A stretch of 52,591 bases of DNA, from the NCBI GenBank assembly GCA_000934665.2, contig JYFJ02002704.1, positions 1 through 52,591 on the forward strand, read 5' to 3'. The translations under genes were made by a program, and so were the position numbers. Of the stretch, positions 17,442 through 52,591 are shown in pieces. How positions within the stretch are numbered: position 1 is the first letter of the stretch; each line of letters starts with the position of its first letter. Source of the DNA: Catajapyx aquilonaris. Taxonomy: Eukaryota. A model generated the notes under the pieces. It had not been told where the DNA came from and made no database searches. It saw only the letters and a program-made list of their open reading frames with translations.

Positions 17442-17996
17442 CTGCATGGGGATATGATTTGTTAGTACACCGAATCATGTCAAAGTATTCTTTTTTCAGT
17501 CTTCCATCAATACTATTATTTGTCAATGCCTTTAGCAGACCTTGGATATAGCAGAAACTTGTATATTGAGGAAAATCTTTTACAGTCCCAGCAGCAAAAT
17601 TGGATTTCCCATGTGTTTTTGTCTGCCATAATGGAACTTGGCTAATGAAGAAAAAGGGAACATTTTCATGCCCAACCCTGTCTGTTGTGGAATTAATACG
17701 ACATAACAGACTGCTTCACACATTCTCTGAACAGGAAGTGTGGCAAATTATTGCACTTGAGGGGCTTGCTGGTGAAAAAAAAAACACCCAGGTGGGAGAA
17801 AACTTGTTTATGTGCCTTAAATTATTTTTCTATGAGTAACCTACTGTCCTATACAGCAGCAATTTGTCTACTAAGGAATATTTTTGGAGAATAGAAAGAT
17901 TGCGCTATATACAGATTTCATTATATAATAATAACGTCAACAGGAATGAATGGCCTGCCATTACTTACAGAAGCAAAAGAAATTAAGACAGCTTAC

Positions 17997-18550
17997 CTGA
18001 AGACACTGATCATTGTGACCTCCCAGGCTGTCAAAGTAGCATATGCTTCTCTTTCTGAAGTCTACTACAGCCAGACACCAGTGAATCTCAAGGTGCACTG
18101 GTATGATTATGAGGTCATATTTAAAGAGGTCTGTCTTTTTGGTCAATCTTTTGAGGACTGCATGGCCTCCAGACAACAGCTTGGGGTAGAAGGAGGTACT
18201 GAAGGCATATGCTTTGGGCAAGCCATCAGTGCCTCCCCTGTTAGCCACCATGCACAAATAGAAGTTGATCACATGGTCATTGAGCCAAGTCTGGCCTTTC
18301 AGTGTCAACATGTCTTGGCGACGGATTGTCAACGTGAACCCTTCTGATAGTATATCTGGACCTGGACCTGGCTTTAGTCCCCACGCAATCTTTGTTTTCA
18401 TTTCAGGAGTGAGTTCTGGTAGTGATGTTTTTGGGTCAGGAATTTCTCGTAATTCTTCCCGAACCTGGGCTTCATACTCCTTCTTGCAACTGTCTTTTGC
18501 TGTCGTTGTTTCTCCTTGACTGTCTGAGTCCGTCGAAGCACTATGGGAAT
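17997..18550 (-). CDS. SENP1: SENP1/2-like protease, exon with N-terminal half of the catalytic domain
   Basis: WLNDHVINFY, IPVHLEIHWCLAVVDFRKRSICYFDSLGG (catalytic His and Asp). Acceptor TTTAG ends at 18551; donor CAG|GTAAGC at 17996 is phase 0 and matches the last exon. Confidence 0.93.
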
Positions 18551-18682
18551 CTAAAGTGAGCCAAGTTAATCCAATAATATATAACATGGAAACATACCGT
18601 GAACACATTGATAGCAATAGGTACAAGTAGCTCACAATTGGAATCACCAGAATGTTGGCTAAAAATCATATACAAAACATAC

Positions 18683-36997: not shown

Positions 36998-38015
36998 CCC
37001 TTTGATGGCGACGGACATCATATGATGTCCGAGCTTACATTGCTGGAGGGCCTACGGACATCATAATAATGATGTCCTGAGATTTGCCCTGCCAACTTGG
37101 GTCGTTTTTCAACTCAAAAAATTTCAACCTCACCGATTTTCTTCAAATTCGGTGCATTGGTAGCCCACACCAAGGGATGACAAACCCACCTATAGTTCCC
37201 TGCTCGACATGACCCTGTGACCCATATTGGAGAGGGACATATGTCAATGCACCGAATTTCAAGAAAATCGGTGAGTAGGGCTGTGCGATATCCGAAATTG
37301 CATATCGACTTTCGATACTTAAAAAATATCGAATCAAAGTCGATATATCGAAAATCGAAAAACCGACATCGAAAAATATCGAAAAATATCGCAAACCGAC
37401 AGCGCAAAATATCACGATGTCGGTTTGCGATATTTTGCGATGTCGGTTTTTCGATTTTCGATATATCGACTTCGATGAGATATTTTTTGAGTATCGAAAG
37501 TCGATATGCAATTTCGGATATCGCACAGCCCTACCTATCGGTGAGGTCGAAATTTTATGATTTGACCTCTGCCCCCCTCAAAATTGGGTCACGAGGTCAT
37601 TTTGATCAAGTAACTATAGGTGCGTTTTTCATCCCTTGGTGTGGGCTACCAATGCACCGAATTTCAAGAAAATCGGTGAGGTCGAAATTTTATGATTTGA
37701 CCTCTGCCCCCCTCAAAATTGGGTCACGAGGTCATTTTGATCAGGTAACTATAGGTGCGTTTTTCATCCCTTGGTGTGGGCTACCAATGCACCGAATTTC
37801 AAAAAAATCGGTGAGGTCGAAATTTTATGATTTGACCTCTGCCCCCCTCAAAATTGGGTCACGAGGTCTTTTTGATCAGGTAACTATAGGTGCGTTTTTC
37901 ATCCTTTGGTGTGGGCTACCAATGAACCGAATTTCAAGAATATCGGTGAGGTCGAAATTTTATGATTTGACCTCTGCCCCCCTCAAAATTGGGTCACGAG
38001 GTCATTTGGATCAGG
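36998..38015. mobile_element. piggyBac-like non-autonomous element (left part) carrying a 119-bp tandem repeat
   Basis: TTAA|CCCTTTGA..GGACATCATATGATGTCC start, shared with 18899 and 51273; about 4 near-identical 119-bp units at 37538-38015. Confidence 0.7.
37276..37537. mobile_element. hAT-type palindromic MITE
   Basis: TAGGGCTGTGCGATATCCGAA...TTCGGATATCGCACAGCCCTA with 8-bp TSD TCGGTGAG (37268-37275 and 37538-37545). Confidence 0.88.
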
Positions 38016-38017
38016 TA

Positions 38018-39007
38018 CCGTCAAACGGGGTTACTTAAGCCGGGTGGTTAACTTAAGCCATTTTGCTGCGTAAATTTCGGACACTGATTTTGGCAACACT
38101 GTTTTGAGTTGAAATGTTATTTTTCGTGACATAAGTTCCATATTTAAGTGCAGTTTTGGACTGCATATTTGAATATTGTGTTTGTGTCAAAGGTAACTTT
38201 GTAAAATCTTAATTATGTTTAGGATAATTGCATCATAAATTTATACCCTACGTAACTTTCATCGCCAACATCATCTGTTTGAATTTAATTCGCTATAAGA
38301 TGATGAAACATAACCTGCAACAGTCCTTTTAAGGTAGTTATACTGCACAGCTTAAATTTTCATTTTGGTGTCAATATATACTTAAAAATTAATTGTTGCG
38401 TCATGTACGGGGTAACATACAGGCCACTTGTTCCAAGCCTGGCAAGAAGTGCGGGGATTAGATTCTGGGGGTCAGGAGAGTATAGTTGCTATGGCTGTGC
38501 GATATTTCGATACATCGACTGTCGATGCGATATTTTCCTAATATCGAAGTTGCGATATCCGACGCTTGGCATGTGCGATGTATCGAATATCGCGATGGCG
38601 GTTTTCGATATTTTTCGATGTCGGTTCGATGTCGGTTTTCGATATTTGTCGATGTCGGTTCGATGTCGATCTGCGATATTTTGCGACGGTTTTCGATGTC
38701 GGTTTTTCGATTTTCGATATATCGACTTCGATTCGATATTTTTCGGATATCGCACAGCCCTAGTAGTTGCCTAGTTGGGAGCATTGTTGATGATGAAATG
38801 TATGTTCACATATCAGAAATATTGTTTGTTCTGTACAGACGGTGAGCATAAAGAGAGGAAGCCATACTTTCCCTTATATGAACTGAAATTTTGAACAATA
38901 AATTTCTGGAGCAATATGCAAATGTTTATTTACGCCCTGTGACCGGACTTGGTTACCGTGTCATCGTCTATCATCATCGAAACACTGAATTCTTCCTGCT
39001 GGCTTAA
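38018..39007. mobile_element. pogo/Tigger-like element, left part
   Basis: TA|CCGTCAAACGGGGTTACTTAAGCC terminus; 38871-39008 matches window positions 143-280. Confidence 0.7.
38490..38762. mobile_element. hAT-type MITE, same family as 37276-37537
   Basis: GGCTGTGCGATAT...ATATCGCACAGCCCTA; TSD (A/G)TAGTTGC. Confidence 0.82.
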
Positions 39008-39750
39008 GAGGGCCGGGTACCTGGCGACCGCGCCACTTTTCAGGCAAAGCGAGGAGAAAAACGGGTGCGGATTCATCGTCTTCGTTCGACATATCTTCGC
39101 TCCTATGGGAGGTACGGACATGCGGTTTTTTGCGTTGCACGGAGGGATGACCGGCGCTGCCTCCGGTGTTGGTCCGGTCTGGATCGGCCCACAAACACCG
39201 CATCTGGGACGGGAAACGCATTTGCCACAGGGGCGTCGAGCCGGAGGACGAAATTCAAAAAAGGAGCTTGGAGGTCCACNACCCCGCCTTGGCACACTGC
39301 GCCTTGGCAACCAGCTAGCTCCAGCTGGTTGCCAAGGCGCAGTGTTGCCGCTCTGTTCTTCCCTCCTTTTTGTCCGCTGTGTCTGTGTCCTTAGGGTCTC
39401 GTTTCGTGCAGCCTCACGTCCACAAAAACAGTCCCGGCGCACCCAAAAATCGTCAGCAGAGACATAGACAGTGGGCCTGTGGACCTCCAAGCTCCTTTTT
39501 TGAATGTCGTCCTCTGGCTCGACGCCCCTGTGGCAAATGCGTTTCCCGTCCCAGATGCGGTGTTTGTGGGCCGATCCGGACCGGACCAACACCGGAGGCA
39601 GCACCGGTCATCCCTCCGTGCAACGCAAAAAACCGCATGTCCGTACCTCCCATAGGAGCGAAGATATGTCGAACGAAGACGATGAATCCGCGCCCGTTTT
39701 TCTCCTCGCTTTGCCTGAAAAGTGGCGCGGTCGCCAGGTACCCGGCCCTC
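39008..39750. mobile_element. Long palindromic TTAA-flanked element (Kolobok-like termini) containing an N join
   Basis: TTAA|GAGGGCCGGGTACCTGGCG...CGCCAGGTACCCGGCCCTC|TTAA; about 270-bp inverted arms; N at 39280. Confidence 0.85.
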
Positions 39751-39774
39751 TTAACGTGGGTTGTTCTCTTGCAG

Positions 39775-40350
39775 ATGTCGATGTTCCCGAAGGCATGCTG
39801 CGAAAGGAGGCTGGAAGAGGTGAAGAGGATGGTGGAGGAGGGAGGGGGTGGGGTGGAGTGGTGTGTGGAGGTGAGGGATGAGGATGGAAAGAGTGCGCTC
39901 CACTGTGCTGCCGAGAGAGGAAGGGACGAGGTGGTCGCGTACCTGCTGGGTGAAGGGTGGCCTGTCGACCAGGGAGACATTTGGGGCAAGACAGCCCTCC
40001 ACTGGGCAGCATCGGAAGGACACATGTCCACGTGCCAGACACTGATGATCACGGGAGGGGCGGATGTGGGGGGAAAGAATAAGAATGGGACCCAGCCCAT
40101 CCACCTCGCTTCTTGTAGAGGCCACGTCCAGGTTGTGGAGTTACTCCTGGAGAATGGGGCAGAGCTGGAGGACAAGGGAGGATTGCGGGTATGGACTCCA
40201 CTCCACTATGCGGCATGGTTCGACCAACCCCAACTGGTTCGCTTCCTTCTGACCAAAGGAGCGGACAATGGAGCCAGAGACATCCAAATGAAGACACCCC
40301 TTGACCTCGCAGAGGAGGAGGGGCATGATGATGTCGTCGAACTTTTGAAG
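39775..40350 (+). CDS. Ankyrin-repeat protein exon (N-cap plus about 5 repeats)
   Basis: TTCTCTTGCAG acceptor ends at 39774; AAG|GTATTT donor at 40351. 192 open codons with DGKSALHCAA, WGKTALHWAA, NGTQPIHLAS, VWTPLHYAA, MKTPLDLAEEEGH. Confidence 0.88.
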
Positions 40351-40654
40351 GTATTTATTGACGGGGGGGGGGGGGGGAGTTGCAATTTGTTCTTACCAGT
40401 CCAGTTTCGATCAATAGAAGCAGTTGGGGAATTTATGAAATCGTAACTTTAGAAAGATATGGAGGTTAGAATCTGTCGGTAATGATGCTAATTAATCCTG
40501 CCATTTCTCCTAGTTGGCGTAGTACAATGTACTGTAATACGCAATAATGCTTTCCTTCCCACTTTCCGAAGAGGTCAAAATCATTCTTATTCTTGAAATG
40601 TTTGTCAAGAAGGAGATGGCAGAAGCAAATCGCGATTTTTTTTTGTCCCGCTAA

Positions 40655-45810: not shown

Positions 45811-46289
45811 TAGTTGTTTTTGTGGTTGATTTAAATATTAAAATGCGAGCAGGAATTAATTCAGACCCTCCCCTTTTGTCTAGTTTTTTTGGCTGACAAC
45901 TTTTTCATTTTACTTGCTTAATATGCACAATAATATTCAGGAATTGTGCCCGCAAATAGGGATGGATGAGGGTGGGTAGTGTGAGTTATGGGAAAGGACC
46001 ATAATCTGATGAAAAGTACTTGACACATCAGACGCGAACCTTGGAACCATCACCTGATCACGAAGTGTGTGACTAAATGTGTGTATATATATAGTAGAAG
46101 CCCACTGAGTTGCTGGGAAAATTGATATGTTATCAACACAGTGGAGTTCACTTTTTATCACTTTCCTTGGCAGACTGGGGGTCGGTTTCATTGCCTCTTT
46201 GTGTGCCCTGCTGGGAACAACCGCTTTCCCGATATACGTACACTAATCTATTGCAACATTTTAAATTAGTTTATTACTGCACTTTGTAG

Positions 46290-47300
46290 GGAATAATCAT
46301 GGCAGAATCATCAGCCGACACCAGCCTGGCAGACTTGCACCACGCGGCGGAGAATGGGTCTCTGTCCACTGTCGTGATATTGCTGGACTAAGGAGCGGAC
46401 GTGGACTGCAGAAGCAGGAATGGAGTGACCCCACTGATGGTGGCCTCCAGACGTGGTTGGATTCCAGTGTGCGAGGAACTGGTCAAGAGGGGGGCAAGGG
46501 TCAACCTGGCCTCCACTCACCAGGACAAGACTGCCCTGCACGAGGCATCAGAGTTCAACCACCTGCAGGTCTGCCGCCTTCTGCTGGAGGAAGGGGCACA
46601 CCCAATGGCCAAGACCAAGGTGGGGGACACCCCTCTGCACACGGCGGCGGAGGCTGTGGGAACGTCCAAGTGGGGAGGCTTCTCCTGGAGTGGGGGGCAG
46701 ATCCTGGAGACAAAAATGGGGACAGGAAGACGCCTCAGGGGGTATAGCAGTGAAGAAGGACAGAAAGGAGATGGCCAGGTTCCTCCTGGGCATGCACCAG
46801 GACATCCACGTCATGGCAGCCATGGGAAGGGAGGAAGACGTTGGCAGGTTGTTGGGAGAAAGAGGAGAAGAAGAGGTGAACAAGAGGAACGGACATGGGG
46901 AGACCCCCCTGATGGTGGCGTGTCGGACCAGGAAGGTGGGCGTCTGTCGGACCCTCCTGGGTCTGACTGGACAGGAAGAGGTGGACGCGAGGGACTTGGA
47001 GGGAAGGACAGCCCTCCACTGGTCTGCCAGGAGTGGTCTGGTCCAGACGTGCAGACTCCTCCTGGACAGAGGGGCTTCCTCGGACACCCGAACCATCCAC
47101 ACTGGCCACACCCCACTGCACTTGGCCTGCATGTTCGGCCATCTGGGCGTGGTCAATCTTTTGGTGGAGGGAAAGAGTGACCCCCAGGCCACGGACAAGG
47201 ATGGGGCCACACCCGCCTCCCTGGCCCTTCTCAAAAATCATGTACAGGTGCATCGATTCATCATGGATCACTTGAAGTCAGTTCATGCCATGCAGTCCAG
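46290..47300 (+). pseudogene. Ankyrin-repeat exon (about 10 repeats) of the ANK-kinase-ANK gene, disrupted
   Basis: TTTGTAG acceptor ends at 46289; ATG at 46299. Ankyrin motifs run through three frames (GVTPLMVAS, DKTALHEAS, GDTPLHTAA / GNVQVGRLLLEWGADP / GETPLMVAC, GRTALHWSA, GHTPLHLAC, GATPASLA). In-frame TAA at 46389-46391, frameshifts near 46656 and 46740, donor reads AG|ATGAGT. Confidence 0.85.
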
Positions 47301-47384
47301 ATGAGTGCACTTGGAATATTTTCTAGTGGTGCCTATGACGTATTACTCGTTTCATTGAGTGGTCATAGTGGGTGTTCTTTTCAG

Positions 47385-48444
47385 CACGAGTGACGAGGAT
47401 GACCCCGTTACAGGAAGTGAAAATCAGTTTGTGTCTCACTTCTTGTCAAATTTCACTACGGAAAAACCTTTGGGTCGCGGTGGGTTCGGATATGTCGTGA
47501 AGGCAAAGCTCAAGCTGACCCCAGCAGTGTTTGCCATAAAGAAGGTCACGATGGCTGCAGACCAGGAGCAGAGAGAGTTCATCCTCAGGGAAATCCGCTT
47601 ACTTTCAATATTGAACCACGAAAACATCATCAAGCTCTACAGCACATGGGAGGAGCTTCCCCCATGTTGGGCCGAAAAGGAGATTGACGTTGCCCTCATG
47701 ACCTACGACAGGTCAACCTCGCAAGGTCAAGAGGCGTCGACAAGGGCCACCGAGTACTTCGCAGCTCCAATCCCTGTCACTGGTCCAACCACATCTTTGC
47801 TCTTCATGCAGCTGGAGTTGTGCAGGGAGGAAACTCTGGGCCACAAGTTGGACAAGGGTCAAAAGCTTGCAAAGTTCATCTCCCTGACCTACTTCCACCA
47901 GGCAATGTCCGCAGTGTCCTACCTCCACTCCCAGAGAATGATCCACCGAGACCTGAAACCACACAACATCTTGTTTGGTTTGGATGGAAAGAGTGCGAAG
48001 ATTGGAGACTTCGGTCTGTCCACCTCCCTCCTGGCCTCTCCTCCTTCCCCCTCCCACCGTCCATGTCCAGTCCAACCATCCCAACCCGGAGTCCCCCCTG
48101 ATCAGTCCCAACCAGAGATGACTGCGGGTGTTGGGACCAGACTCTACTGCTCCCCCGAGCAGATGAGCGGGAGAGAGTACGGTCCAAAGACGGATGTGTA
48201 TTCAATGGGTCTGGTCCTCTACGAGATGCTGGCCCCATTCGGAGGGGACAAGGAGGGAAGGATGCGGACCTTCCTCTCCCTCAGGAATGGAGAGCAGTTC
48301 CAGGAGGACTTCACACATAAGAATGCTGAAGAAGCTGGGCTGATCCAGAAGATGCTGACAATCGATCCGTCCTCAAGAGTGTCCTCTTCTACGTGGAGCA
48401 ACACGTGCAGATGTCTCTGGACAGAAGGAGGAATATGGTGGTAA
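47385..48444 (+). CDS. eIF2alpha-kinase (PERK/EIF2AK3-like) catalytic domain exon
   Basis: LGRGGFG, AIKK, REI, STWEELPP..W (cf. PERK AWLEAPP..W), kinase insert, LFMQLELC, HRDLKPHNI, KIGDFGL, TAGVGTRLYCSPEQ, KTDVYSMGLVLYEML. TTTTCAG acceptor ends at 47384; GTAAGG donor at 48441. The exon is open but its host gene appears disrupted. Confidence 0.9.
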
Positions 48445-48542
48445 GGTATATTATTGCCCATTGTGCACTGTAGAGTACAATGCCTGGTAAATTAACTGAT
48501 TTTATCAGATTTTATACAGACGTTCTCTCCTGGTGATTTCAG

Positions 48543-48754
48543 TTGGACTCCCACAGTTTCCTCATAACGTGCAGGAATGGCGTCCTGTCCCAGGTAGAAG
48601 AGTGAGTTGACGTTATGGGAGTGGACATGGTGGGTTCGGTGCGAAGCATTTGACCAGAGACGAGTATGGTTGGTCACCTCTTGGTCTCGCAGAGAATAAC
48701 GGACATGATGAGGTCGCAAGATATTTGAGGTATTTGAGGGGTCCTCTTCTATAA
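48543..48754 (+). pseudogene. Terminal ankyrin-repeat exon of the ANK-kinase-ANK gene, disrupted
   Basis: TTTCAG acceptor ends at 48542. Reads LDSHSFLITCRNGVLSQVEE*VDVMG (N-cap, TGA at 48603), then in another frame from 48638 GAKHLTRDEYGWSPLGLAENNGHDEVARYLR...LL* (TAA 48752-48754). Confidence 0.75.
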
Positions 48755-49151
48755 CGAGGCAGGTGCCATTTTGGCTGGAAATAACTTTTTTCTGTGTTTT
48801 CCTGTGGCAAGTGTCACTTCTGCAGTTGCACTAAAAAGACTGTCCAACGAGCCTCCGTTCCGATAATATCTATACCGAAAGTTTTTAATGTCCATTAAGA
48901 AGGGTGTTAGAACGAATAAAAAAATGGAAGTGATATATTCGTGACTTATTGCGGTTGAAGTGTGACGTGAGACACAGCCATTCCTGCAAATAAATGTGAA
49001 ACCAAGAGCTAATAAATTATTATTAGCTCTTGAGGTGAAAGTACTAACCTGTCGATTACCGTTGACATTCAGCAGTTTCGCCACGATGTCTTTCGGAGAG
49101 GTCGCTTCTTCCGCGTCCAATGCAGGACATAATATATTATTGTCACACATA

Positions 49152-49964
49152 TTATACGAAATGGTGATCAATATGTGTTAAAACATGAGGCGAGCCTATA
49201 CTTTCAGTTCCATTAAAATCTGGTGTCCGATTACGCCTTGTTCTAATCAAGGAAAAACACTTCTTGCAACACACTCCCTTGAGAACAAACAGTTGTCGGA
49301 AGGTGTCCCTGAATTCCTTGCTCATCCTGCAGTAGAGAACAAAGTTGATGGCACTGTTCAGTAACACTATCACATCCAGAAGTCTGGCCATGTAGTAGGT
49401 GCAATCATCAAAGTACCATAATCCTCTGATTATGACTAGAAGAGACAGGATTCCTCCTGGAACCTCCGTGACCAGAAAGACAAAGAGGACCACCACCACC
49501 ATCCTGGTCGTCCTGTCAATGTTGCTGTCTACTTCAGAAGAACATCTGCTTTCTTGACTTATTGAGCAGCTTATGCTGTTCCTTAAGTACCTTCTCCTCC
49601 TCTTGGCCTCGACCAGTGCCCCAACGAGCCTCAGAGTCAAGATGGGCAGCACCAAGCAAGGACTCAGCTTCAAGAAGACGGCCGAGATCCAGAAATTGGC
49701 CGATACACTTGGCTTGAAAATATTAGTGGCATCGCTGAACTTCTCGCTGGTGTAGTACAATTCGTAGTATGACCCGCGTGCTAGCACTTGGTGGACGTAG
49801 TAGAAAGGAGTGTGCAGGATGACGACAGCGACGTACACGCCGACCACTGACCACTTGGCCCTCCTCTGGTTGCACCAATCTTTGCTTCTGTGGGGCCAAC
49901 ACACCACAAGGTATCGCCACACTGCCAGGGTCACGGTCAGCCAGATGGACACGGCGTGCATCAC
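49152..49964 (-). CDS. Rhodopsin-class neuropeptide GPCR (myosuppressin receptor/DMSR-like), exon 2 (TM3-TM7)
   Basis: HAVSIWLTVTLAVWRY, DRTTRMVVVVLFVFLVTEVPGGIL and LNSAINFVLYCRMSKEFRDTF are characteristic of myosuppressin-receptor-like GPCRs. Acceptor TCCCAG ends at 49965, phase 0. Confidence 0.9.
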   Translation of the reverse strand: MMHAVSIWLTVTLAVWRYLVVCWPHRSKDWCNQRRAKWSVVGVYVAVVILHTPFYYVHQVLARGSYYELYYTSEKFSDATNIFKPSVSANFWISAVFLKLSPCLVLPILTLRLVGALVEAKRRRRYLRNSISCSISQESRCSSEVDSNIDRTTRMVVVVLFVFLVTEVPGGILSLLVIIRGLWYFDDCTYYMARLLDVIVLLNSAINFVLYCRMSKEFRDTFRQLFVLKGVCCKKCFSLIRTRRNRTPDFNGTESIGSPHVLTHIDHHFV

Positions 49965-50130
49965 CTGGGAGAACGGAATGGATCAAACTAAAATCATTGC
50001 GAGCCAGGACACGGAACCCGCTCAAAAGTGTTGTGGTTTCGGAATCCTACTTATCGTAATAAACGTGTGCATTGAGTTAGGTAATGAGTCTCGATATTTT
50101 CATTTTAATGAGATTGTTGCAATGTTATAC

Positions 50131-50460
50131 CCGTTTTAATATTGTGAAGACCAGATAATACGCTGCCAACGAGAAGAACTTGGACGTCCCCTCCAGTCCA
50201 AACTCTGCCTTGTTCCCGTACATCTCCTGCATGATGGCGAAGCACATGTAGGGGATCAGCACCAGAAGGTCCGACACGGCCAGTCCCACCAGGATGGTGC
50301 TGGTGGGGGACACCATCCTCTTCTTGGACAGGACAACAATGCAGAGGATGTTGGACACGGAGCCCAATATGCACATGACAAGGGCCAGGTGAGGGTGGAC
50401 CAGACCAGTGAACTTGTTCATAAGGATTTTGAAGTCACCACTGCACAAATTGTACCCCAT
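50131..50460 (-). CDS. Myosuppressin receptor-like GPCR, exon 1 (TM1-TM2)
   Basis: HPHLALVMCILGSVSNILCIVVLSKKRMVSPTSTILVGLAVSDLLVLIPY. Donor CGG|GTATAA at 50130, phase 0. The spliced product is 380 aa. Confidence 0.87.
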
Positions 50461-51272
50461 CTTGGTGGTAAGTCCTGATGTATCACGCGCTGTGCACTGT
50501 TATAATTATACTGTATTCAAGGGACGGTCTTATTCTAGCGAACCCCAACCTGAAACAACTGATGCAACGACACGAAACAGTATAATTGCGGATATGCACA
50601 AACAAAAAGCCAGGGGAATTTTGTTGTCAAGCTATAAATATTCTCATTATCACACAAGCGACAATGAGCTACGAGAGACAATGGGACCCACTTGAATCAT
50701 TATTCTGCCTCTCAACACTCTTATAGGTGTCATTAACAACTTTCACAACAATATAGGATTTAAGTCATCCAGGTCTGAAATTAATACGGGACTAATATAT
50801 TGTGGTAAGTGATTTACCAACCTCCCTCATGGCTTCAGTTACTAAGTACGGTACTACGTGGTGAATCAGCAGAACTCACCTTGTAAAATTGATATAAAAG
50901 ACTACTTCTTTCCATCGAATGTTTGTCCAACCTGACAGTACAGTACCACCATCTCTCGCACGACCTGAGGGTGGCAAAAGTGAGAAAAGGAATGATGGGC
51001 CATCTATGCGTGAAGATTAGCACTGCATGGTAAGCATGGGAAAATAATTCATTGCTATGATTCAATTAAAATCCTGATTTGTAGGCCTCAGAATAAAACA
51101 AATAATGCATGCCATGCTGTTAGATCCTGCAAAGATCAATGTTCCAATAATAATTGGTTCATCATTGATATGCAGTATATACCACTGTCATTATTCGCGT
51201 TTGGCCAATGTTACTCGCAGGTGTAGCATACGAGGTATGCTACAAAACAATAATAACTGGTTAACGCGTTAA

Positions 51273-52144: not shown

Positions 52145-52591
52145 TTATACACATTCCGCTAACTGAGAGCCATATGTATGTGACACGTCTTCAAAGCCAT
52201 CTCTCCCGTGAACCTTTGTTCTAATCCAGGAAAAACACTTCTTGCAACACATTCCCTTGGGAACAAACATTTTCCTGAAGCGCTGAAGGTGTCCCTGAAT
52301 TCCAGCATGCTCATCGTGCAGTATAGGATGAAATTGATATTGCACTGTTCAGTAACACTATCACATCCAGATGTAGTAGTAGCAGCAGTCGTTAAAGTGC
52401 CCGAATCCCCTGATGGCTACCAGAAGAGCCAGAATTCCCATCGGAACCTCCATGAGCAGAAAGACAAAGAGAACCACGACCACCATCCTGCTGGTTGTCC
52501 TCTCCATCTTGCGGTCCACTTCAGAACAACTAGTTTCTTCGGATATTGAGCTGCTTCCTTGGTTCAGAATGTACCTTCGCCTCCAGGCCTC
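52145..52591 (-). pseudogene. Frameshifted tandem paralog of the myosuppressin receptor-like GPCR (3' part, truncated by window end)
   Basis: Nucleotide similarity to 49250-49610 (e.g. gcactgttcagtaacactatcacatccaga, ggaaaaacacttcttgcaacac). TM6/TM7-like translation is broken by indels near 52371, 52340 and 52280. Confidence 0.8.

Follow-up and report, generated by a model that had tools for sequence, protein, structure and literature searches.

Ankyrin-repeat and eIF2α-kinase exons in a decayed, multi-copy locus of Catajapyx aquilonaris

Results

Layout of the locus

The window analyzed here is a stretch of 52,591 nucleotides (nt) from Catajapyx aquilonaris (contig JYFJ02002704.1 of assembly GCA_000934665.2), and the element in question is a putative gene on its plus strand between 46290 and 48754. 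Inspection of the open reading frame (ORF) listing and of the sequence itself revealed three exon-like blocks in this interval: the first encodes ankyrin repeats, the second a kinase of the eIF2α-kinase family, and the third what appear to be further ankyrin repeats. An earlier reading of the letters alone (the original prediction) had taken them for the parts of one fusion gene, in which a PERK-like eIF2α kinase follows an array of ten ankyrin repeats and precedes a C-terminal ankyrin piece. The exons and introns are as follows, with a slash marking a splice site here and below.

46290..47300, plus strand: exon 1, about ten ankyrin repeats, with an ATG at 46299; the frame is broken three times in the window copy
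47301..47384, plus strand: intron 1, 84 nt, with a strong acceptor (ttcttttcag/C) and AT instead of GT at the donor
47385..48440, plus strand: exon 2, 1056 nt, a complete catalytic domain of the eIF2α-kinase family on a single exon
48441..48542, plus strand: intron 2, 102 nt, GT..AG, removed in a contig of run X5
48543..48754, plus strand: exon 3, roughly two ankyrin-like repeats (…FLITCRNGVLSQVEE and a stop, then …DEYGWSPLGLAENNGHDEVARYL…), closing with the stop TAA at 48752-48754

The ankyrin exon

Exon 1 starts directly behind an acceptor (ttgtag/GG, 46290 being the first base past it) and reads as ankyrin repeats across three successive frames. Pfam matched the frame pieces with Ank (E 5.2e-17 and 4.9e-26) and Ank_2 (E 4.3e-17 and 2.2e-25), and Ank_4 was matched as well. 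When the two 2-bp insertions described below are omitted, the exon reads through for 335 codons and two further nt, interrupted by a single stop, and the self-similarity of the resulting protein peaks at a lag of 33 residues; 335 codons with this periodicity amount to about ten repeats, the number first proposed. Tandem 33-residue repeats that match the Pfam Ank models are what defines an ankyrin repeat protein, and exon 1 has them. The Pfam scan of the locus pieces returned Ank and Ank_2 on exon 1 and Pkinase on exon 2, and it returned no luminal-domain, dsRBD (dsrm), z-alpha, HisRS, heme-domain or KEN/RNase signature.

A hydrophobic ORF of 37 amino acids (aa) lies upstream of the ankyrin exon (46127-46237, plus strand; MLSTQWSSLFITFLG…). 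It could join 46290 in phase 0 across a gap of 52 nt from a weak donor (TAC/GTACAC) and, if real, would provide the protein with a membrane anchor; neither a supporting read nor a homolog was found for it. The earlier statement that the locus has no signal peptide, luminal domain or transmembrane helix therefore holds for the Pfam scan, and is qualified by the existence of this unsupported ORF.

The kinase exon

Exon 2 sits in an ORF of 361 aa from stop to stop (47359-48444; Pkinase, E 2.7e-46) and contains the motifs GRGGFG, AIKK, HRDLKPHN, DFG and GTRLYCSPEQ together with a β4-β5 insert and a Pro-rich insert in the activation loop. Membership of its kinase in the eIF2α-kinase (PEK) family is well supported by sequence matches in the PDB, by the conservation of catalytic columns and by the ranking of fold matches, and the original prediction was correct on this point. 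The top 19 PDB sequence matches are all eIF2α kinases (PERK at 152.9, GCN2 at 132, PKR at 121 and HRI at 112 bits), the next family being CDPK at 94 bits, and neither RNase L nor IRE1 is among the best 60. The alignment with PERK starts at the juxta-kinase SxxLxxF motif (NQFVSHFLSNF in the window, SGYISRYLTDF in PERK), spans the β4-β5 insert as well as the long activation-loop insert, and ends at DPxxR. The β4-β5 insert is aligned over that of PERK and has about 45 residues, flanked by …YSTWEE and LLFMQLELC; the αG region (…KEGRMRTFLSLRNG…) is aligned to PERK …QMERVRTLTDVRNL….

In an alignment of 40 sequences, residues K52, E69, H187-R188-D189, N194, D208-F209-G210, T251 and P257-E258 occupy columns that are invariant or at least 90% conserved, and judged by these residues the domain appears to be catalytically competent. 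T251 lies in the activation loop, and we take it to be the equivalent of PKR T446. An AlphaFold2 model built on the same alignment reached a predicted local distance difference test score (pLDDT) of 85.2 and a predicted template modelling score (pTM) of 0.82; residues ~106-136 of the model, in the β4-β5 insert, have low pLDDT and no secondary structure. When the model was searched with Foldseek, PERK structures took ranks 1-9 (TMt 0.82-0.87) and PKR rank 10, and all of ranks 1-14 were PERK or PKR.

The tree gave a less specific picture. A quick maximum-likelihood analysis of 68 kinase domains placed the window sequence on a long terminal branch (1.23 changes per column), outside the clade of PKR, GCN2 and HRI (SH-aLRT 98) and beside the PERK group, not inside it (85, polytomy). 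The approximately unbiased (AU) test covered only the grouping of the window with PKR, and did not reject it (p 0.456). "PERK-like", as the kinase had been called, is therefore apt as a description of its best sequence and fold matches and probably not as a statement of descent, the tree placing the kinase in no named subfamily. The further proposal that a PERK kinase domain was shuffled onto an ankyrin scaffold was not borne out, since a grouping with PKR came through the AU test unrejected. The first Met in the frame of the kinase exon lies past the catalytic lysine of AIKK, and because no start codon precedes that lysine the exon needs a coding exon upstream.

Exon 3 and the splicing of intron 2

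Sequencing runs from more than one source could be compared with the locus. X1-X3 are DNA runs, the contigs of which were aligned to a 2.6-kb stretch, and X5 comes from another sample and study. The kind of X5 is unrecorded; we took it as RNA since one of its contigs is spliced at GT..AG. This contig of 634 nt joins 48439/48440 to 48542/48543 and skips exactly the 102 nt of intron 2, with 249 nt on its shorter side and no other differences, just where a 48440>48543 junction had been expected. The kinase exon and the 3' ankyrin-like exon are thereby linked in one transcript. X5 contigs do not cover the ankyrin exon of the window copy, and this was not counted as evidence.

The ankyrin character of exon 3 comes from protein comparisons. 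With phmmer, a 47-aa piece of it matched 39 of 120 ankyrin proteins and 0 of 379 proteins of the kinase set, and with tblastn it matched another ankyrin ORF of the window at 40258-40350 (E 2.3e-4), in keeping with the third ankyrin exon that had been placed after the kinase.

The proposed junction between the ankyrin and kinase exons

At the proposed junction 1, position 47300 is the second base of a codon and 47385 the third (TCC AG/C), with 84 nt between them, so phase, spacing and positions were all as originally predicted. The acceptor (gtgttcttttcag/C) is pyrimidine-rich and strong. The donor, CAG/ATGAGT, equals the consensus save for A at +1, and 372-nt contigs of X1-X3 carry the same A at 47301, as does a 432-nt contig of X5. 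A weaker, canonical GT donor of the same phase lies 24 nt upstream (47276/47277). From the near-consensus donor with its G>A change at +1, the strong acceptor, the matching phases (2/2) and the lack of a kinase start upstream, we infer that splicing joins, or once joined, the ankyrin exon to the kinase exon in a single mRNA. Two other readings of the interval were discarded: a U12-type AT-AC intron, as the intron ends in AG and has no ATATCC donor, and read-through of intron 1, as in-frame stops rule it out.

Lesions in the window copy

The window copy carries seven lesions:

46389..46391, plus strand: in-frame TAA inside repeat 1 (…VVILLD*GADVD…)
46655..46656, plus strand: 2-bp insertion (TG of TGTG), frame shift +2
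46744..46745, plus strand: 2-bp insertion (TA of TATA), frame shift +2
47301, plus strand: mutated donor, AT in place of GT
~48370-48390, plus strand: change of frame at the C-terminus of the kinase, from frame 1 (…IDPSSR) to frame 0 (…YVEQHVQMSLDRRRNMV)
48603-48605, plus strand: in-frame TGA in exon 3
~48633-48645, plus strand: change from frame 0 to frame 2 in exon 3

With these seven lesions the window copy is a pseudogene and cannot encode the fused protein. The claim that the three exons join in frame once lesions are repaired is borne out to the extent that their phases are compatible. The mutated donor, the shift of frame in the kinase and both lesions of exon 3 recur, with no difference from the window, in contigs of two samples, so that these four are not errors of assembly; for exon 3 the second sample is X5, one contig of which covers 48542-48800 without differences.

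Other copies are intact at some of these sites. At the TAA, the end of a paralog contig reads …TTGCTGGACAAA (Lys), with TTG CTG GAC AAA where the window has TAA, and past 48390 another paralog contig end reads TAC GTG CAA CAA CAA GTG AAG AAG in frame 0. Every listed X1-X3 contig over 46655 is without the two extra bases (one of them, a 312-nt contig of X2, differs from the window by one other letter and two gaps), and their omission restores …TPLHTAAEAGNVQVGRLLLEWGADP. The two bases at 46744/46745 are likewise missing from diverged paralog contigs of X1 and X3, and again the frame is restored by omitting them. The frame is thus open at both sites in other copies, or in a consensus of copies that are almost identical. 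The insertions could be private to the window copy or could be assembly errors, and are less secure than the other lesions; since contigs drop rare variants, their absence from contigs does not prove the window wrong.

A multi-copy family

Diverged copies of the ankyrin exon and of the kinase exon are present in one individual, and the locus therefore belongs to a multi-copy family. From X1 alone, 196 contigs aligned to the 2.6-kb stretch, 133 of them less than 99% alike. Counting distinct contigs and not taking summed depths as copy numbers, we found an alternative letter in up to 9 contigs per site of the ankyrin exon and in up to 8 per site of the kinase exon. The contigs are short, and the ankyrin copies and the kinase copies may or may not belong to the same genes. 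Almost only the window's own contigs align over introns 1 and 2 and exon 3.

Some copies are free of lesions at the sites covered. The ends of paralog contigs read as coding sequence, which supports the family; for example, one runs …CTC AAG CTT GCT TCA CTA ATG TTC GCA GTC followed by AAG AAG (LKLASLMFAVKK), where the window has LKLTPAVFAIKK. Codon positions were tallied from 40 of 134 difference rows, three rows at the 46738-46746 frameshift being dropped. In the ankyrin part (frame 1), 11 of 19 paralog differences fall at codon position 3, and in the kinase exon 6 of 17, which is no excess. These counts are weak evidence that the ankyrin copies are under coding constraint, and no such evidence comes from the kinase copies.

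Paralog contigs also vary within the Pro-rich activation-loop insert (48037-48135, plus strand), where 3-nt insertions at 48037 and skips of 68-90 nt were observed. The insert is therefore of variable length among members of the family.

Searches for relatives

In protein searches with the kinase, the best 120 of 2809 longer proteins and the best 120 of 967 proteins of similar length included fish PKRs, arthropod and mollusc PERKs, HRI (eIF2AK1), and GCN2 or proteins of GCN2 length, with identities of at most 42% among the matches listed; neither list of 120 contained an ankyrin Pfam domain. An exhaustive search of representatives returned 388 proteins at E <= 1e-30, the best 150 of which were at most 50% identical over the matched stretches only, and Pfam found Ank in 0 of 31 examined from these 150. 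When the window ankyrin pieces were used as phmmer queries, none of 379 proteins from the kinase searches was matched, and 120 of 120 from the ankyrin search were matched as a control. In a metagenome scan, 80 of 533 loci were kept (best identity 41-47%), and neither these nor the 4 loci of a viral scan included a close relative; none of the 84 loci gave an ankyrin match. In the protein atlas the kinase fell to generic kinase clusters, and among ten near relatives looked up by cluster the named ones are few, a PERK from a mite and an eIF2α kinase from a cuttlefish among them.

Searches with the ankyrin exon returned generic ankyrin proteins, mostly at 40% identity or less. Four of the 120 listed carry kinases; these score 29-45 bits against the window kinase, compared with 78-190 bits for eIF2α kinases. 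Full-text literature searches, judged on titles and abstract openings, yielded no description of an ankyrin-eIF2α-kinase architecture, and in PMC5666893 the three passages with "ankyrin" deal with Shank1. The pairing thus looks unrecorded as far as these comparisons of sequences and texts extend, in agreement with the original prediction, which knew of no such architecture.

Other features of the window

The ORF matched by exon 3 lies on the plus strand at 39790-40443. It is open, apparently single-exon and ~218 aa long (Ank_2, E 5.7e-42), and its last repeat (…EEEGHDDVVELLKVF) resembles the exon-3 repeat with 45% identity over 31 aa. Immediately upstream of it is a 276-nt inverted repeat (39004-39279 and 39479-39754; 98% complementary, arms 199 nt apart, N at 39280), which may be what remains of a transposon or may have arisen by recent inverted duplication.

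On the minus strand, tail-to-tail with the kinase locus, two ORF pieces at 49155-50499 encode a rhodopsin-type or Srw-like G-protein-coupled receptor (GPCR; 7TM_GPCR_Srw, E 1.6e-25; 7tm_1), which falls to GPCR clusters of mixed phyla in the protein atlas. An ORF at 52184-52546 (plus strand) resembles an antisense reading of 49182-49364 and suggests a second copy of the receptor at the window end. An ORF with a Ulp1/SENP-type Peptidase_C48 domain (17964-18665, minus strand; E 1.2e-18) could be an exon of a host SUMO protease or a transposon-borne ULP. Finally, 37196-38035 (plus strand) and 38300-38850 consist of ~150-nt tandem units in which …SKFYDLTSAPLKIGSRGHFDQVTIGAFFIPWCGLPMHRIS… is translated four times, with related sequence on both strands, and are probably satellite or transposon sequence.

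Discussion

On balance, we favor by a modest degree the view that the locus is a transcribed, decayed copy of a lineage-specific, multi-copy gene encoding about ten ankyrin repeats, an eIF2α-kinase domain and roughly two C-terminal ankyrin repeats. Several observations weigh against it. The sole contig to cross junction 1, the 432-nt contig of X5 (47273-47704), retains all of intron 1, and the donor is AT; in this one low-depth run no contig was spliced from 47300 to 47385 and no transcript or paralog joining the ankyrin exon to the kinase exon was seen. An unspliced contig is the outcome expected from a dead donor. Pfam reports nothing on exon 3, where the ankyrin call is weak, both 2-bp insertions occur in no listed contig, the kinase-exon differences lack an excess at third positions, and no intact copy was seen among the contigs. 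Beyond the locus, the protein, metagenome and viral searches gave no relative above ~47% identity and no ankyrin-bearing one, and the fusion is therefore without support from elsewhere.

The ankyrin and kinase exons may instead be chance neighbours: a stand-alone single-exon ankyrin gene or pseudogene ending at the TGA of 47302-47304 and, inserted downstream of it, a 5'-truncated duplicate of an eIF2α-kinase gene comprising the kinase exon and the 3' exon. The match of phase would then be accidental, and a fused protein would never have been made. We hold this to be unlikely. It would fit the stop that the ankyrin frame meets 2 nt past the proposed donor, the AT donor and the unspliced X5 contig, and an intact single-exon ankyrin ORF does exist in the same window (39790-40443). 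Diverged contigs are also more numerous over the ankyrin exon than over the kinase exon, and no ankyrin-eIF2α-kinase protein was found elsewhere. However, CAG/ATGAGT is off consensus at +1 only, and a consensus GTGAGT donor in phase 2 would itself yield an in-frame TGA. An acceptor with a pyrimidine tract lies 84 nt downstream in a locus where introns are short (102 nt for intron 2), and the phases at junction 1 match, as they would by chance in one case out of three. Moreover, splicing joins the kinase exon on its 3' side to an exon that is ankyrin-like too, which puts repeats of this type and the kinase on at least one common transcript.

If a fused protein does exist, its kinase could have shifted to another substrate and act as a signaling scaffold kinase in the manner of other ankyrin-kinases. 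The long terminal branch outside the named PERK, PKR, GCN2 and HRI clades and an identity to any relative of at most ~41% would agree with such a shift, which we nevertheless consider improbable given that the kinase retains every hallmark of eIF2α kinases visible in sequence, from its juxta-kinase motif and β4-β5 insert to its activation-loop Thr and αG region. That the gene is intact in the animal, its lesions being assembly or consensus errors from collapsed, near-identical paralogs, is highly improbable. In favor of it, the extra bases at 46655 are missing from every listed X1-X3 contig there (one only a single other letter off over 312 nt), and a contig that matches 46405-46641 letter for letter has a summed depth far above that of the sequence around it. 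Against it, four lesions recur with no difference from the window in contigs of two different samples and studies, namely the A at donor position 47301, the shift of frame at the kinase C-terminus, and both the TGA at 48603 and the shift of frame in exon 3; moreover, substitution-type lesions (TAA, TGA, AT) are untypical of assembly errors.

Returning to a decayed copy of an ankyrin-eIF2α-kinase gene, the product of an intact member would be a protein of ~750 aa without a luminal or dsRNA-binding domain. Its ankyrin array may bind a protein or a small ligand, and binding could bring about back-to-back dimerisation and autophosphorylation of the activation loop. The active kinase would then phosphorylate eIF2α at Ser51 and shut down translation, making the protein a candidate cytosolic sensor of stress or infection. 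We infer this mechanism from what is typical of the eIF2α-kinase family and of RNase L, and an immune or translation-shutoff function follows from the same analogy only. Possible, if rather doubtful in its entirety, is the fuller scenario in which intact paralogs are cytosolic eIF2α kinases with a ten-repeat ankyrin sensor that expanded in one invertebrate lineage as an innate-immune module for translation shutoff, analogous to PKR in function and to RNase L in architecture, with birth-and-death turnover leaving the pseudogene described here.

Each eIF2α kinase is defined by its stimulus, be it unfolded proteins, uncharged tRNA, heme, dsRNA or Z-nucleic acid. An ankyrin-array sensor, if true, would give the integrated stress response an input domain of a fifth kind, and invertebrates would gain a candidate for a PKR-like, cytosolic arm of translation control against viruses. 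Immune arms races also tend to produce families of this sort, multi-copy and quick to decay. In any case, the finding serves as a pointer to a candidate family within the full genome, the fused protein being represented here by a decayed copy only.

Comparison with known systems

Among known kinases, PERK (EIF2AK3) provides the best sequence match (152.9 bits) and the best fold matches (Foldseek ranks 1-9), and it shares with the window kinase the juxta-kinase SxxLxxF motif, the β4-β5 insert, the long activation-loop insert and the αG region. Unlike PERK, the locus has ankyrin repeats in place of a signal peptide, a luminal β-propeller-like domain and a transmembrane segment, none of which was detected; the PERK matches carry PF13360/PF13570, and neither is present at the window locus. 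The kinase domain also differs in not being placed inside the PERK clade by the tree (support 85, polytomy) and in being encoded whole on one exon.

Ankyrin repeats and a kinase are combined in one polypeptide in ILK, TNNI3K, ANKK1/RIPK4 and DAPK1, and likewise in the four proteins from the ankyrin-exon search (P0381, P0397, P0425 and P0491). The kinases of these proteins are of unrelated subfamilies, however, as the low scores of those four against the window kinase illustrate.

PKR (EIF2AK2) and fish PKZ have the same order of parts, the eIF2α-kinase domain being preceded by a cytosolic sensor at the N-terminus. Among the matches listed, the longest kinase alignments were those with fish PKRs (91-99% coverage at 29-33% identity), and some of these matches are multi-kinase PKRs, PKR and the window family both being rapidly duplicating. 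In place of the dsRBD or Zα domains of PKR and PKZ, neither of which was found at the locus, the window gene would use an ankyrin array as its sensor and would carry an extra ankyrin piece at its C-terminus.

RNase L consists of nine ankyrin repeats that bind 2-5A, a pseudokinase and a KEN ribonuclease. It is like the window gene in having an N-terminal array of some nine to ten ankyrin repeats directly before a kinase fold in a cytosolic protein, and it sets the precedent for ankyrin repeats as a ligand sensor that drives dimerisation. In contrast to RNase L, the window kinase lacks none of the catalytic residues and is a member of the eIF2α-kinase family rather than of the IRE1/RNase L type, and with no KEN/RNase domain at the locus the output of the pathway would be phosphorylation instead of RNA cleavage.

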